Part shown: positions 51,923 to 59,274 of the stretch, one piece after another
Layout of the letters: each line of letters opens with the position of its first letter
Position numbering within the stretch: position 1 is the stretch's first letter
Source of the DNA: Thermodesulfovibrionales bacterium
Lineage (GTDB): Bacteria > Nitrospirota > Thermodesulfovibrionia > Thermodesulfovibrionales > Dissulfurispiraceae
Length of the DNA stretch: 64,000 nucleotides
Direction of reading: 5' to 3'
NCBI GenBank assembly: GCA_046350935.1
Contig: JAXLZK010000010.1
Location: 18,569 to 82,568, forward strand
Made by a program: the position numbers and the translations under genes
The notes under the pieces: model-generated
Seen by the model: the letters and a program-made list of their open reading frames with translations, nothing else
Databases searched by the model: none
What the model was told of the DNA's origin: nothing

Positions 51923-51977
51923 TGAAATAAAGAGTGGAGCTGAACGGGATCGAACCGTCGACCTCTTGAATGCCATT
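51923..51977. repeat. Left direct repeat of the integrated element: displaced 3' part of tRNA-Ala plus about 12 nt of flank
   Basis: TGAAATAAAGAG-TGGAGCTGAACGGGATCGAACCGTCGACCTCTTGAATGCCATT matches 59189-59244 except for one A in a homopolymer. It covers tRNA positions ~33-73, from the anticodon loop to the 3' end. Confidence 0.9.
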
Positions 51978-52135
51978 TACCTACATGTATCCCCTGTATT
52001 TTGTCCCCTGTCTCATCTTATTTGCTCTTATCTGTTTCTTCTAGTCCTTACTGATAAATTGTTCCTTCATATTATCCCTTGTTTTACCTTATCAAGTATA
52101 CAAAAACTATACACAACAAAAGGAGAACTAAAATG

Positions 52136-52161
52136 GAGGGCTTCGGCCCTCTCTCTTTTTT
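52136..52161 (+). terminator. Rho-independent terminator-like hairpin at the left edge of the element
   Basis: GAGGGC-TTCG-GCCCTC followed by TCTCTTTTTTG. It overlaps a 19-codon mini-ORF (MEGFGPLSFLLTLGTKCLE) that has an AAGGAG SD. Confidence 0.5.
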
Positions 52162-52162
52162 G

Positions 52163-52190
52163 TTGACTCTTGGGACAAAATGCTTAGAAT
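52163..52190 (+). promoter_or_regulatory. Candidate sigma-70 promoter of the cargo operon
   Basis: TTGACT (52163-68), a 16-nt spacer, then TAGAAT (52185-90). It lies 25 nt upstream of ATG 52216, which has an AGGAGG SD. Confidence 0.5.
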
Positions 52191-52215
52191 AGGTGAAAAC
52201 ACTCAGGAGGTTGCC

Positions 52216-52668
52216 ATGATGAAAGGACTGATTACACTTCTACTATGCTGTATGCCTGTTGTCGCTTTTGGGTTTGATTTGGAGACACTGGACGACGACT
52301 TTGATCCTAGGGATTTAAGGAATTACAAAGGGGCAACACTGGCAGTCTGCAATATAACTGATACCAAGGGAAAGATGGTCACTACTGCCAAAAAAGGGGA
52401 TACCATTACCTTTGCAAACTACTTTATTAAGACGGATTCCGAGCTTGTTGATTATGACGTTGATATAAGTTATCCCACTTCTAACTCAGGAAAATTCAAC
52501 ATGACAGCTAACTACAAAGGACAGTTGTATATAACAGGCAGTAGTAAGATCCAAATTGTTGCTCTATATTTTGTAATCCCAAATAGTTCCTATTCTTCAG
52601 GAACATTGACTGTGACGGCAACTGTTTCCTCATTCGGAACGTGTTCAAAAAGCATTACTGTAAATTAA
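52216..52668 (+). CDS. Cargo gene 1: small secreted protein of unknown function
   Basis: The signal peptide is MMKGLITLLLCCMPVVAFG. About 130 aa of beta-rich, Ser/Thr/Asn-rich sequence follow. I recognise no family. The track ORF starts at 52180. Confidence 0.6.
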   Translation: MMKGLITLLLCCMPVVAFGFDLETLDDDFDPRDLRNYKGATLAVCNITDTKGKMVTTAKKGDTITFANYFIKTDSELVDYDVDISYPTSNSGKFNMTANYKGQLYITGSSKIQIVALYFVIPNSSYSSGTLTVTATVSSFGTCSKSITVN

Positions 52669-52682
52669 TAGGAGGGGATTCC

Positions 52683-53108
52683 ATGAAAAAAGGGGTATCG
52701 GCAGTTCTAATTCTCTTTTTCTTATCTGCATGTGCAACAAGTCCTGACAGCATCCAGAGCGCGTATGTTTCTCCATTGCAGTACAAAGGATATGACTGTG
52801 ACCAGATCATTGAAGAATCCTCGCGCGTGGCCCGAAGAGTAGGCGAGCTGAATGGAAGCCTTACTAGAAAGGCAAGTAATGATGCCGTAGCCACAGGCGT
52901 AGGACTGGTATTGTTCTGGCCTGCTCTTTTATTTATTAAAGGGAACGGGCCTGAAGCGCAAGAATTTGCCCGAATGAAAGGTGAATATGAGGCATTAGAG
53001 AAAACTGCCATAGAGAGGAAGTGCAATACCGCAATGATGCCCAAAATACAATTGCAGCAGCCTGAGCAAGAAAAAGTAAACATCTCTAGTACAGTACCAG
53101 GTATTTAG
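52683..53108 (+). CDS. Cargo gene 2: lipoprotein of unknown function
   Basis: ATG 52683 is preceded by a GGAGGGG SD. The lipobox is VLILFFLSAC. The pattern YVSPLQYKGYDCDQI..GVGLVLFWPALLFIKGNGPEAQEFARMKGEYEALEKTAIERKC matches a widespread uncharacterised lipoprotein family, as far as I remember. Confidence 0.6.
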   Translation: MKKGVSAVLILFFLSACATSPDSIQSAYVSPLQYKGYDCDQIIEESSRVARRVGELNGSLTRKASNDAVATGVGLVLFWPALLFIKGNGPEAQEFARMKGEYEALEKTAIERKCNTAMMPKIQLQQPEQEKVNISSTVPGI

Positions 53109-53227
53109 ACGAGTTTCTATCCTATAAAAAGAGAGAATTACAGGGGATAGGGTAGCTCCCGAAAAGCCGCACTCCGCGGCCTTCCCCTGATCAATTCCGG
53201 AGAACCACGTCGGAGAGGTGGAACGAA

Positions 53228-57205: not shown

Positions 57206-57508
57206 TTGAAAATTGAACTCGAAGGGCAAGACATTGAGGCAGTGGCGTTAAGAGTGGTTGAACTCATAAGACCCGCTCTTGCTTTACTCAGTAAGCAAGA
57301 GGATGATACCATCTATGACCCTGAAAGCCTTGCACAGTATCTCAGGGTAGATGTTTCATGGATATACAAGAAAGTATCGCTTAAAGCTATCCCATACTTC
57401 AAAAGCGGGAAATATACAAGGTTCAGGAAGTCCGCAATAGATAAATGGATCGAGATGCAGACGGTGAAGCCAGTCCACTTTATAAAGCAGGGAAAAGGGC
57501 AGGGGTGA
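57206..57508 (+). CDS. Excisionase/AlpA-like helix-turn-helix protein
   Basis: The gene uses a TTG start. The C-terminal half SLAQYLRVDVSWIYKKVSLKAIPYFKSGKYTRFRKSAIDKWIE matches the HTH_17/excisionase pattern. Confidence 0.6.
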   Translation: MKIELEGQDIEAVALRVVELIRPALALLSKQEDDTIYDPESLAQYLRVDVSWIYKKVSLKAIPYFKSGKYTRFRKSAIDKWIEMQTVKPVHFIKQGKGQG

Positions 57509-57602
57509 GCACTTGATAATATATCATGAAACCTTGGGAAAAAATAATAACAAATCAGTACCATTTAGTCACCTGTATAGTGAATTGTATACTTCATTCA
57601 TC

Positions 57603-57632
57603 TTGACAACATCTAACTTAGTTAGGCATAAT
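57603..57632 (+). promoter_or_regulatory. Promoter with embedded palindromic operator, giving a leaderless XRE transcript
   Basis: TTGACA (57603-08), an 18-nt spacer, then CATAAT (57627-32). The spacer contains the perfect palindrome CTAACT-T-AGTTAG (57613-25). ATG 57639 lies 6 nt after the -10 and there is no SD. Confidence 0.55.
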
Positions 57633-57638
57633 TTGAAC

Positions 57639-57872
57639 ATGAAGGAATGGACGAAAGAGGAAATCAAACAGTTCAGAGAGTGCCTAGAGCTTTCGCAACC
57701 TGCTTTCGGAAAGCTTATAGGGGTAACAGGGAATTACGTCTATCTAATTGAAAAGGGGGTGAAGAAACCTAGCAGGACATTAGTGCTTTTGCTCAACTGT
57801 ATTGAGGAGAAGGCATCAACAAAGAAAAAGGAAAGGGTGGTAACTAGTTATGGACTGGCAAGAGAAAATTGA
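57639..57872 (+). CDS. XRE/Cro-CI-family HTH regulator
   Basis: MKEWTKEEIKQFRECLELSQPAFGKLIGVTGNYVYLIEKGVKKPSRTLVLLL is an HTH_3 pattern. The track ORF begins at 57513, upstream of the promoter. Confidence 0.75.
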   Translation: MKEWTKEEIKQFRECLELSQPAFGKLIGVTGNYVYLIEKGVKKPSRTLVLLLNCIEEKASTKKKERVVTSYGLAREN

Positions 57873-58062
57873 GGAGCATTTGACGTTGCTGTTGGTCTCC
57901 TTTTTGTTGTCTCGTATATCTTTGAAAGTGTTAGGGGATGGCTGCAAGAGAATCTAGTCCTTGTGCTCTCTACGCTAATTGTAGTAGCCGTTATAGACTT
58001 GAAAAATCACATTGATGGCGCTGCAACGCGGTACTTCTTAAATCATGAAAGGGGAATGAACT

Positions 58063-59173
58063 ATGGCGAAAGGGATATATAAGCGTGGGAGTATTTTCTG
58101 GATTCGCTATGCAGGACTAGACGGAAAGATTGTTTTTGAAACTTCCGGCTCTAATAAGTTTAAAGATGCCGAAACCCTACTTATCAAGCGGAAGAACTCT
58201 ATCAAGGAAGGTAAGCAGCCGGAAATTAAGAAAATAGGGAATCATACCTTTAATGAGCTTGTCGACCAGTACAAGAAATGGGCTGAACGGCAGCGGAGCT
58301 TTAAGAGCAAAGAGTACCTTATAGATCAATTAGCAGAAAATTTCGAAACCTCCCTTTACGGCGCTTCAACACCATGCTTCTTGAACAGTTCCAATCCGAA
58401 CGTTTACAGAAGGGTAAAGAGCGAGAAGTGAAGCCGGGATATAAGCCGATAGCAGTTACAGGGAATAAGCCTGCTACGGTTAACAGGTTTATTGCTACAA
58501 TCTCTCATATGTTCACCAAGGCCGTAGAATGGGACATGGTGGAAGAGAAACATTAAGACGTGTTCGCAAGGTAAAGCTTCTCCTGAGAACAATAAGCGGC
58601 TCCGATATCTCTCAAAAGAGGAATGCCAAACACTGATAGAGAAGTGCGATACACATTTAAAGCCTATCGTCATTACGGCTCTTAATACCGGAATGCGGAA
58701 GAGTGAAATACTTTTCCTCAAATGGGATAACGTAGACCTGAAGCACGGCTTTATCCTACTGGACATAACGAAAAATGGCGAACGTAGAGAGATACCCATC
58801 AATAATACCCTGAAAGCCTTACTACAGAGCATTACACGGCGTTTAGACGTACCTTACGTGTTCTTTGAGCCTTCCACTGGGAAGCCTTACGGTAATGTGA
58901 AAGAAGCTTCAATACGGCCCTGGAGGAATGCAAAGATACGGGACTTTCATTTTCATGACCTACGGCATACCTTCGCATCTCATCTAGTAATGGCGGGAAT
59001 AGACCTTACGACAGTAAAGAACTCTTAGGGCACAAGGATATTAAAATGACCTGAGATATGCCCATCTTGCACCGGCGCATAAGGTGAAAGCTGTAGATAT
59101 TCTAGATAACGCACTGTCTGGAAAGCCAACTATACAAAAAGTATACAATCAGGTGGTTGGTGGAGAATTTTAA
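58063..59173 (+). pseudogene. int: Tyrosine recombinase/integrase of the element, at least four frameshifts
   Basis: - MAKGIYKRGSIFWIRYAGLDGKIVFETSGS.. is the Arm/SAM-like N-terminus, in ORF 58063..58431.
- ..MLLEQFQSERL..NKPATVNRFIATISHMFTKAVEW is in ORF 58374..58556.
- ..ALNTGMRKSEILFLKWDNVDL..FHFHDLRHTFASHLVMAGIDLTTVK is in ORF 58693..59028.
- ..LLGHKDIKMT.RYAHLAPAH..VVGGEF lies in other frames.
The catalytic R, HxxR and Y contexts are all present. Confidence 0.8.
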
Positions 59174-59188
59174 TGGTAGGCAAGTGGT

Positions 59189-59244
59189 TGAAAATAAAGA
59201 GTGGAGCTGAACGGGATCGAACCGTCGACCTCTTGAATGCCATT
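59189..59244. repeat. Right direct repeat of the element (inside and just 3' of the intact tRNA-Ala)
   Basis: Identical to 51923-51977 apart from one extra A in the AAAA run. Confidence 0.9.
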
Positions 59245-59274
59245 CAAGCGCTCTCCCAACTGAGCTACAGCCCC
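59202..59274 (-). tRNA. tRNA-Ala (anticodon GGC)
   Basis: - Hand-folded cloverleaf.
- The acceptor stem pairs GGGGCTG with CAGCTCC, including the G3:U70 Ala identity pair.
- The D arm is GCTC-AGTTGGGA-GAGC.
- The anticodon stem-loop is CTTGA-AT-GGC-AT-TCAAG.
- The T arm is GACGG-TTCGATC-CCGTT.
- No CCA is encoded. Confidence 0.9.

Follow-up and report, generated by a model that had tools for sequence, protein, structure and literature searches.

A satellite-like 7.27-kb island at tRNA-Ala(GGC) in an uncultured Thermodesulfovibrionales genome

Results

A tRNA-derived repeat marks both ends of the island

We analyzed a 64,000-nucleotide (nt) stretch of contig JAXLZK010000010.1, hereafter the window, from the metagenome-assembled genome (MAG) GCA_046350935.1 of an uncultured Thermodesulfovibrionales bacterium; positions below are counted from its first letter. 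A preliminary description of this DNA had placed a 7.3-kb island between direct repeats of ~55 bp in the gene for tRNA-Ala(GGC), and we find an exact 53-nt repeat and an island of 7,267 bp, in good agreement with that outline. Very probably, this is a site-specific integrative island of 7.27 kb that was inserted Campbell-style into tRNA-Ala(GGC) by its own tyrosine integrase, and that belongs with a family of satellite-like islands of 5.5–9.6 kb. The target gene and the two junctions are as follows.

59201–59274, minus strand: intact tRNA-Ala(GGC), recognized by ARAGORN and by the Rfam tRNA model (64.2 bits), with the anticodon at 59239–59241; the calls start at 59201/2.
51925–51977: integrase-distal junction core, a probably displaced copy of the 3' 44 nt of tRNA-Ala(GGC) (51934–51977) plus 9 nt of flank.
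59192–59244: integrase-proximal junction core, in which 9 nt of flank are followed by tRNA positions 74–31.

ARAGORN calls two tRNA genes in the 64-kb window, of which tRNA-Ala(GGC) is one. A repeat search of 51000–60500 returned a direct repeat that is 100% identical between 51925–51977 and 59192–59244, with a spacing of 7,267 nt. It is made up of tRNA positions 31–74 (44 nt) and 9 nt of downstream flank, and its tRNA part starts with the final 5'-strand base of the anticodon stem and runs on through the entire anticodon loop to the 3' end. The preliminary description had recognized the combination of tRNA and flank, and its figures of 41 and 12 nt need only be changed to 44 and 9. It had also given the length of one A homopolymer as the sole difference between the copies. 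The 53-nt block itself is exact; beyond it, a 1-nt indel in an A-run extends a weak similarity by ~13 nt, with 3 mismatches, to 51912/59178. When 3 mismatches are allowed, the 43-nt tRNA part has exactly 2 copies in the 64 kb, and it was matched in none of 100 shuffled sequences. The island can be written as 51978–59244 or, equivalently, as 51925–59191.

Guanine and cytosine (GC) make up 46.4% of the DNA between the repeats and 61.2% of that outside them, and the lowest host window of 7.2 kb has 58.4%; the inter-repeat DNA is more AT-rich than its flanks, as had been reported. Within the island the composition is a mosaic, with ~42% GC at both ends and 52.5% in the middle (54.3–57.2 kb). All credible open reading frames (ORFs) of the island lie on the plus strand, so the earlier statement that every gene does so holds for all plausible ORFs.

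Contig L173, which is independent of this assembly, begins inside the repeat at 51934 and is 100% identical to the window over 51934–54921. Because it covers the left junction, that junction is not peculiar to this assembly. The sequence supports taking the repeats as the two junctions of a site-specifically integrated element, which fixes the extent of the island. The proposal that they are attL and attR and set the limits of a mobile element agrees with the integrase, with its tRNA-adjacent relatives, with relatives that have boundaries of their own, and with L173.

The integrase gene is probably intact in the organism

58063–59174, plus strand: tyrosine integrase, 371 amino acids (aa) once the frames are corrected, from three-frame translation and frameshift-aware alignment to the homologues P0001, P0002 and P0004.

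The integrase gene ends 26 nt from the 3' end of the tRNA (stop codon 59172–59174) rather than the 29 nt given before. After frame correction, the protein is 80% identical over 99% coverage to intact homologues of 369–372 aa (PF00589) and has all catalytic motifs. What had been overlooked is that the ORF is interrupted at least 5 times, with the coding sequence spread over all three frames. The frameshift-aware alignment places 1-nt deletions near 58345, 58545, 58580, 59014, and 59052, and there is a compensated −1/+1 pair near 58903 and 58928 that leaves nine residues scrambled. Of 91 positions with at least 97% conservation in a set of 120 homologues, only one outside this compensated patch is changed in the stitched protein, which is in the range of intact proteins.

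A second contig, L172, was assembled independently from run SRR26348421 and shows 0 mismatches in 2,127 nt against window positions 56388–58508. Relative to L172, the window lacks one A (~57825), TGCC (57885/6), and a G at 58345; the missing G causes the first integrase frameshift, and L172 restores it. L173, from the same run, is identical to the window over its 2,988 nt without a gap. Given this agreement elsewhere, the discrepancies are confined to 57.8–59.1 kb, a stretch that is a module conserved among related islands and in which L172 also ends (at 58508). Because L172 differs by no substitution and yet repairs the first deletion and two indels just upstream of it, the integrase frameshifts are probably assembly errors in a poorly corrected stretch of the MAG. 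A search for a 100%-identical fragment of the integrase C-terminus, which would span frameshifts 2–5, returned only homologues of at most 82% identity. Neither a second integrase copy nor further fragments of tRNA-Ala or tRNA-Arg are present in the 64-kb window. Neutral decay was considered as the main cause of the frameshifts and rejected, as conserved positions are intact and the independent contig is without the indels. With the integrase frameshifted in this assembly, the mobility of the island is presumed from sequence.

The island belongs to a large family of minimal, modular islands

To place the island among its relatives, we used 80 metagenome loci with integrases 49–77% identical to that of the window, and counted a tRNA as adjacent when a complete tRNA gene begins within 400 nt of the integrase stop. 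The integrase family itself is much larger, with 6,455 proteins at E < 1e-10 among 8,000 scored candidates. A tRNA gene adjoins the integrase in 56 of the 80 loci, 51 times convergent as in the window and 5 times co-directional. tRNA-Ala(GGC) accounts for 16 of these 56 tRNAs, mostly beside the closest relatives; the others are tRNAs for Arg, Cys, Thr, Val, Gly, Lys, Phe, Leu and Pro as well as tRNA-Ala(CGC). The layout of the window recurs in L081–L083 (integrase P0006, 77% identical), where tRNA-Ala(GGC) lies 28 nt past the stop on the opposite strand.

Boundaries made of tRNA-derived repeats, 39–61 nt long, delimit seven distinct relatives (eight fetched loci, five tRNA targets), with island sizes of 5.5–9.6 kb: L085/L086 5.5 kb, L145 7.0 kb, L142 7.1 kb, L090 and L151 8.25 kb, L169 8.45 kb, and L137 9.6 kb. 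Nearly all loci share the module HTH_17–XRE–integrase, whose DNA identity between the window and L081/L085 is 66–72%. The replication genes vary, and include CHC2/Toprim/AAA_25 fusions (651–758 aa), Toprim/DnaB_C proteins, and Prim-Pol/PriCT_1 proteins, with fused primase-helicases of 534–758 aa.

The clearest case of this modularity is L169 (GCA_002634385.1, NSJL01000002.1, 4885–13396), an 8.45-kb island in tRNA-Ser(CGA). Its secreted-protein gene, RNA-motif region, and small-terminase-like gene (terS-like) are 82%, 83%, and 87% identical in nucleotide sequence to those of the window, yet it has another integrase, another tRNA target, and a full CHC2-Toprim-AAA_25 primase. The shared segments therefore point to recent exchange of modules between islands with different targets.

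Tandem arrays were seen in L092 (2729–10322), L146, L148, and L153, where an intact integrase is followed by only a tRNA fragment of 43–48 nt and then a second island; they fit what is expected of successive integrations at one tRNA.

Scans of 2.9 million IMG/VR contigs gave integrases of 38% identity at best, and the highest value among 50,697 phage records was 32.5%. The viral-contig scan with the AAA_25 protein of the window gave no match, and that with its terminase-like protein gave one weak match (31% identity). The island is one of a large family of minimal, modular islands of satellite-like design, undescribed so far, which includes members in reversed orientation.

Arm-type sites and a crossover in the anticodon loop

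Two motifs just within the island ends have the appearance of integrase arm-type sites.

52096–52113, plus strand: putative arm-type site of the P' arm, GTATACAAAAACTATACA, with two TATACA half-sites 11 bp apart.
59130–59147, plus strand: putative arm-type site of the P arm, CTATACAAAAAGTATACA, inside the 3' coding end of the integrase.

The motif TATACAAAAA(C/G)TATACA has only these two occurrences in the 64-kb window, 119 nt inside the left repeat and 45 nt before the right repeat. At the same position of the integrase 3' end, L081, L089, and L085 have GTGCACAA(A/T)(A/T)A(C/G)TGCACA, so that their motif is of a TGCACA type, GTGCACAAAAA(C/G)TGCACA. The left arm of L085 is otherwise homologous to that of the window and bears GTGCACAAAAAAAGCACA, matching the TGCACA pair at its integrase end. 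Both arms of an element thus change together, as expected of arm-type sites for its own integrase, and the covarying arms would be sites read by the integrase of each element. The P-arm site also encodes the C-terminal tail of the integrase, PTIQKVYNQ here and PSAQKLHNL in the TGCACA relatives, and the differences in the tail track those in the DNA site.

The anticodon arm, CTTGA-ATGGCAT-TCAAG, is a near-palindrome, as for core sites around a 7-bp overlap. A second line of evidence on the crossover comes from relatives inserted the other way round.

5609–5649 and 11094–11171 of locus L085: reversed relative, which is also represented by L086 and L088.

In L085/L086/L088, tRNA-Ala(GGC) lies on the integrase strand, 7 nt past the stop, and here tRNA positions 1–39, its 5' part, form the repeat. 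The repeat covers positions 31–74 in the window and in L090, and 1–39 in the reversed L085/L086; the two blocks overlap only in the anticodon loop ± 1 nt. If related integrases cut alike, the crossover would fall within the 9 nt common to both blocks, namely the anticodon loop ± one base. With the crossover there and a Campbell model, the repeat copy beside the intact tRNA would come from the island, and the distal copy (51925–51977) is probably the original 3' part of the host tRNA, now displaced. For the reversed insertion, the 5'-half repeat means that the island must supply the 5' part of the tRNA and its promoter. Integration that carries the 5' half of a target is known and uncommon, according to Zhao and Williams (2002) as cited in PMC6563490.

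These reversed sisters have 70–77% identical integrases, and L104, L122, L126, and L167 group with L085/L086/L088 as insertions the other way round. Among the 5 co-directional loci of the 56, the 5'-half repeat was verified for the L085/L086/L088 element only.

Gene content of the island

From left to right, the island carries the following features.

52216–52668, plus strand: o1, cargo gene for a secreted 150-aa protein with a signal peptide (ORF list; gene call on L173 at 283–735).
52683–53108, plus strand: o2, cargo gene for a predicted 141-aa lipoprotein with the lipobox LSAC (translation).
53140–53203, plus strand: int-alpA RNA motif (Rfam RF02996) with three stems, matched over its full length at 41.4 bits (gathering score 35.8) and located 24 nt before o3.
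53228–54235, plus strand: o3, 335-aa protein with a helix-rich region and an invariant C...H...C motif in its conserved C-terminal half.
54345–54599, plus strand: 84-aa protein ahead of the replication genes, weakly DUF5659-like (Pfam E = 0.0014, below the cut-off).
54596–55123, plus strand: CHC2 zinc-finger protein, 175 aa (Pfam Zn_ribbon_DnaG, 1e-27), the N-terminal domain of DnaG only, without Toprim.
55116–56048, plus strand: AAA_25 (RepA/DnaB-like) ATPase, 310 aa, with a C-terminal helix-turn-helix (Pfam AAA_25, 4.4e-29; PHROG primase/helicase families).
56088–56513, plus strand: 141-aa ORF from the ORF list, without a family match in Pfam, PHROG or PADLOC.
56545–57135, plus strand: small-terminase-like DNA-binding protein, 196 aa (Pfam Terminase_2, 26.1 bits; PHROG terS, 3e-9).
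57206–57508, plus strand: excisionase-family HTH_17 protein, 100 aa (Pfam HTH_17, 3.5e-10; TIGR01764 'excise', 33 bits against a cut-off of 28.8).
57639–57872, plus strand: XRE-type helix-turn-helix regulator with weak Pfam HTH_3/HTH_31 matches, conserved in relatives.
57851–58082, plus strand: 78-aa hydrophobic ORF overlapping the integrase start, disrupted in the window by the 4-nt deletion (TGCC) at 57885/6.

The HTH_17 gene is kept upstream of the integrase in nearly all related loci, and its product is a candidate directionality factor of the Xis/AlpA type. The adjacent XRE gene has its 3' end altered in this assembly by the A missing from a run at ~57825, and the L172 version is 69 aa long; the 78-aa ORF is likewise intact in L172 (1464–1700).

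The replication genes lie in the middle of the island. The CHC2 protein matches PHROG primase families and a 177-aa family that consists of the zinc finger only, and TIGR01391 matches its N-terminal part only. The AAA_25 protein is presumed from its sequence to be a replicative helicase or initiator; helicases of the AAA_25/RepA type are typical of small plasmids. Homologues of the 84-aa protein sit directly upstream of the primase in L092 and L137. Judging from these genes, the island is probably self-replicating.

For the 196-aa protein, residues 52–106 match the N-terminal third of the Terminase_2 profile, at a score of exactly the gathering threshold. Its AlphaFold model, with a mean predicted local distance difference test (pLDDT) of 69, has two helix-turn-helix units followed by helices. 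Sequence and fold searches of the PDB gave no significant match, while the best matches in BFVD, a set of predicted viral structures, are mostly named terminase small subunit (E 1e-3 to 1e-1). The sequence and the model are suggestive of a small terminase, and the identification is not secure. The protein is 100% identical to a Thermodesulfovibrionales MAG protein ('MAG: hypothetical protein U0411_06595') and is also encoded on L172.

Upstream of o3, the int-alpA motif recurs in L145 (4339–4405) and L137 (3662–3728), and falls just under the threshold in L171 (968–1031) and L092 (4576–4641). Compensatory changes occur in 8 of the 15 pairs that RNAalifold predicts across these five islands, in a MAFFT alignment whose register is imperfect. 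In the window, L137, and L171 the motif precedes, by 20–25 nt, a mid-size ORF that itself lies ahead of the replication genes, and in L092 and L145 the longest downstream ORF overlaps it. The downstream ORFs differ between islands and need not be homologous. Described members of the int-alpA RNA come mostly from proteobacterial prophage-like regions.

For o3 we found 149 representative homologues and an AlphaFold (AF2) model with a pLDDT of 82.5, and neither a Pfam family nor a PDB match by sequence or fold. At the corresponding place of another such island (L186) lies a homologue, P0170. Near o1, a promoter/terminator scan marks a promoter-like site at 52163–52190 and a hairpin with a T-run at 52135–52152. 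The o1 protein has no Pfam, PHROG, or PADLOC match, and o2 has a weak PHROG match alone, to a family without an assigned function.

Scans of the island proteins with Pfam, PHROG, and TIGR models detected no relaxase, coupling protein, or other transfer gene. No capsid, capsid-morphogenesis, tail, holin, or lysis gene was found among 10 intact ORFs with Pfam and PHROGs. PADLOC models run on all island proteins gave no defense system, only domain-level matches to the zinc finger and ATPases. Exact-protein look-ups of o1 (long form) and of the M16 peptidase in the flank returned no identical record.

Flanking host DNA

Beside the left junction, at 50875–51735 on the minus strand, lies the remnant of a sensor histidine kinase. 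Its 860 nt hold a dCache fragment and the HATPase_c end, in frames that differ, and have no HisKA; the remnant is a true pseudogene or else a further fault of the assembly. Farther away, at 45513–47500, the DNA past a plus-strand tRNA-Arg(ACG) drops in GC content in patches (54%) and has small ORFs, one of them VanZ-like. As there is no integrase at 45513–47500 and no tRNA-Arg fragment elsewhere in the window, no island can be defined there.

Discussion

A model for integration, excision, and spread

In the mechanism we propose, the integrase would bind the paired TATACA arm-type sites just within both island ends, and the near-palindromic anticodon stem would serve as core sites, with strand exchange in the 7-nt anticodon loop. 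On integration, the 3' part of the tRNA that the island carries (positions 31–74 plus flank) would rebuild an intact tRNA beside the integrase gene, and the host's own 3' part would be displaced by 7.27 kb to 51925–51977. Excision would need the integrase together with the excisionase-family HTH_17 protein, and the junction of the excised circle (attP) is predicted to read ...GGCAAGTGGTTGAAAATAAAGAG + the 44-nt tRNA part + TACCTACATGTATCC. The circle would then replicate by means of the CHC2 zinc-finger and AAA_25 helicase pair. Across the family, the module HTH_17–XRE–integrase–tRNA would be joined to exchangeable replication and cargo modules. The repeats, the tRNA, the genes, the association of integrase and tRNA throughout the family, the relatives with boundaries, and the covariation of the arm motifs are observed directly; from them we infer the position of the crossover, the host-derived copy of the repeat, excision, and replication.

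As to how such an island would move between cells, the likeliest route would be that of a phage satellite whose small-terminase-like protein assists its packaging by a helper phage. This lifestyle is speculative, and we regard it as possible rather than probable. It is tempting to go further and to see in these elements a very large, undescribed family of minimalist phage satellites (5.5–9.6 kb) in Nitrospirota/Thermodesulfovibrionales and other anaerobic lineages, with exchangeable primase-helicases, regulation by the int-alpA RNA, redirection of packaging by the terS-like protein where it is present, and an integrase clade that makes such full use of the near-palindromic anticodon arm that sister elements insert in either orientation, with the 3' or the 5' half of a tRNA. 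In this full form we think the proposal unlikely.

Several points weigh against the mechanism and the satellite lifestyle outlined here. We know of no helper phage for the island, and the IMG/VR and other viral-contig scans contained no related element. The terminase label comes from a match of an N-terminal helix-turn-helix at the Pfam threshold and from weak fold matches. Unlike most relatives, the window has a replication module without a Toprim or Prim-Pol catalytic domain. Of the five integrase frameshifts and the compensated pair, the first frameshift alone could be compared with an independent contig. Finally, no empty attB, attP circle, or polymorphism of the island was found in GTDB genomes or metagenome contigs, because the host has no close relative in these collections: among GTDB representatives, the best homologue of the flanking M16 peptidase is 58% identical and not syntenic, tRNA-Ala lies beside the gene in 0 of 18 relatives, and the exact 28-nt host flank has 0 matches in metagenome contigs.

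Alternative explanations

That the repeat is an assembly artefact, from a duplicated or mis-joined contig end, is exceedingly improbable. The source is indeed a MAG with local indel errors, but the two copies have unique flanks that differ on both sides. One copy completes a functional tRNA, the architecture recurs in many unrelated assemblies, and L173 shows the junction between tRNA fragment and island independently. Alternatively, the island might be an immobilized relic, with the integrase and the small ORF upstream truly frameshifted, which would be excised only by a related integrase acting in trans. Speaking for it are the uncompensated 1-nt deletions, at least five, within the integrase and the loss of 4 nt from the ORF that overlaps it upstream, as well as the adjoining histidine-kinase fragment, which suggests that gene decay occurs in the region. 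However, L172 lacks all three of the indels that it covers, without a single substitution, and the stretch shared with L173 is gap-free. Seven neutral indels would bring dozens of substitutions with them, and no excess of change is seen at conserved positions. The uncompensated events are all deletions, most fall in short homopolymers, and they cluster in 1.3 kb; sequencing errors left uncorrected in a conserved, repeat-like module give this pattern. We therefore consider a relic, left by a real and very recent inactivation, distinctly unlikely and an integrase misassembled in this MAG the better account.

The remaining alternatives concern the kind of element. The integrase, excisionase, XRE, primase-like, and terminase-like genes are functions of phages too, so that the island might be what deletion left of a full-size prophage once located at tRNA-Ala. 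Uniform small size, a common architecture, and absence from recognized phages argue against this: seven bounded relatives at five tRNA targets are all 5.5–9.6 kb, the examined ORFs of the relatives hold no capsid, tail, or lysis genes, and integrases of this clade are absent, at more than 38% identity, from the viral contigs and phage records scanned. A prophage remnant is thus very unlikely. The island could instead be a replicative integrative element that spreads without phage, by conjugative mobilization, vesicles, or transformation, its terminase-like protein being a helix-turn-helix regulator only. In line with this, the terminase-like match is to the DNA-binding N-terminus only and has no PDB fold match, the Pfam family description ties AAA_25/RepA-type helicases to small plasmids, viral contig collections hold no relatives, and many related islands are without a terminase-like gene. 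Yet no transfer gene was detected, the PHROG and BFVD matches are consistently to small terminases, and an integrase, an AlpA-like HTH protein, a primase-helicase, and a terS-like gene within 5–10 kb, along with an int-alpA RNA motif, are what known satellites carry (PICI, PICMI, and VEIME; PMC10085698, PMC10803314, PMC9618062). Phage-free spread seems to us somewhat unlikely but is to be taken seriously.

Implications

The island is of an ordinary kind, with the textbook footprint of integration in a tRNA gene. What we add, and consider useful, is that the frameshifts are probably artefacts, that the arm sites and the crossover position can be inferred, and that the island is a member of an undescribed family. 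In practice, this gives the uncultured Thermodesulfovibrionales genome exact island limits, a flagged local assembly problem in the integrase, and a set of horizontally acquired genes. The wider value lies in the thousands of related integrases, ~50–80% identical in the loci that we examined, at tRNA genes across environmental metagenomes, on very small replicative islands with genes like those of phage satellites. Within a single integrase clade, tRNA integration with the 3' half can be set naturally against integration with the 5' half, and the int-alpA RNA can be studied in a setting that is new for it. Should the islands prove to be satellites, satellite biology would extend to Nitrospirota and relatives; to our knowledge, no satellite has been described so far in the phyla concerned.

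Comparison with known systems

The anticodon-loop crossover is a recognized class among tRNA-targeting elements (Williams 2002, as cited in PMC6563490). Like the classical elements of this class (P4, HP1, and P22 type), the island has a tyrosine integrase gene beside an intact tRNA, carries the 3' part of the tRNA from the anticodon loop on, which gives a direct repeat of 40–60 nt, and has an excisionase-family partner and, here putatively, arm-type sites. It differs in that its integrase clade is at most 32% identical to any sequenced phage integrase, in that it is far smaller than a phage and without structural genes, and in that all genes, including the integrase, face the tRNA. No psu-delta-sid operon or alpha primase, which mark P4-like satellites, was found with Pfam or PHROG.

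Among satellites, phage-inducible chromosomal islands (PICIs), as defined in SatelliteFinder (PMC10085698), share with the island an integrase, an AlpA-like HTH_17 protein, cargo, and a size below 15 kb, and the absence of tail, holin, and capsid genes. The CHC2 and AAA_25 proteins, without a Toprim or Prim-Pol catalytic domain, are candidate counterparts of the primase/helicase-type module of PICIs, and the terS-like protein is a candidate counterpart of their small terminase. Of the features that define a PICI, the island has the integrase with AlpA/Stl-type regulators (HTH_17, XRE) and lacks structural genes, and it has no capsid-morphogenesis gene, which type B PICIs also lack (PMC10085698). 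It further differs in its replication families (CHC2-only and AAA_25), the weakness of its terS match, and its reversed gene order, with the integrase last. Proteobacteria and Firmicutes account for more than 99.9% of the PICIs detected (PMC10085698), and the host here is of a Nitrospirota lineage.

[quoted passage not shown] However, PICMIs adjoin fis and have 17-bp repeats and DUF3987/DUF5906 primases, whereas the island lies in a tRNA gene, has CHC2 and AAA_25 proteins, and carries a terS-like gene; neither the fis site nor a DUF3987/DUF5906 primase is found in it.

Tycheposons of Prochlorococcus (bioRxiv 10.1101/2020.12.28.424599) and marine VEIMEs (integrative mobile elements packed into virions; PMC9618062) are also small, tRNA-specific islands with exchanged integration, replication, and cargo modules. 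They too form tandem arrays with partial tRNA copies between the members, have terS in a subset, and include tRNA-Ala(GGC) among their targets. Their hosts are other organisms, their integrase clade is unrelated so far as a comparison of architecture only can tell, and packaging in virions or vesicles is for the present island at most a prediction. The RNA motif resembles RF02996 in being full-length above the gathering score, in the compensatory changes of its stems, and in its location on an integrase-bearing island; it differs in lying upstream of a variable mid-size ORF before the replication genes and not between the integrase and alpA. Taken together, the gene set resembles those of PICI, PICMI, PICI-like tycheposon, and VEIME satellites, and by this comparison the island appears satellite-like in design, and we assign it to no named family.

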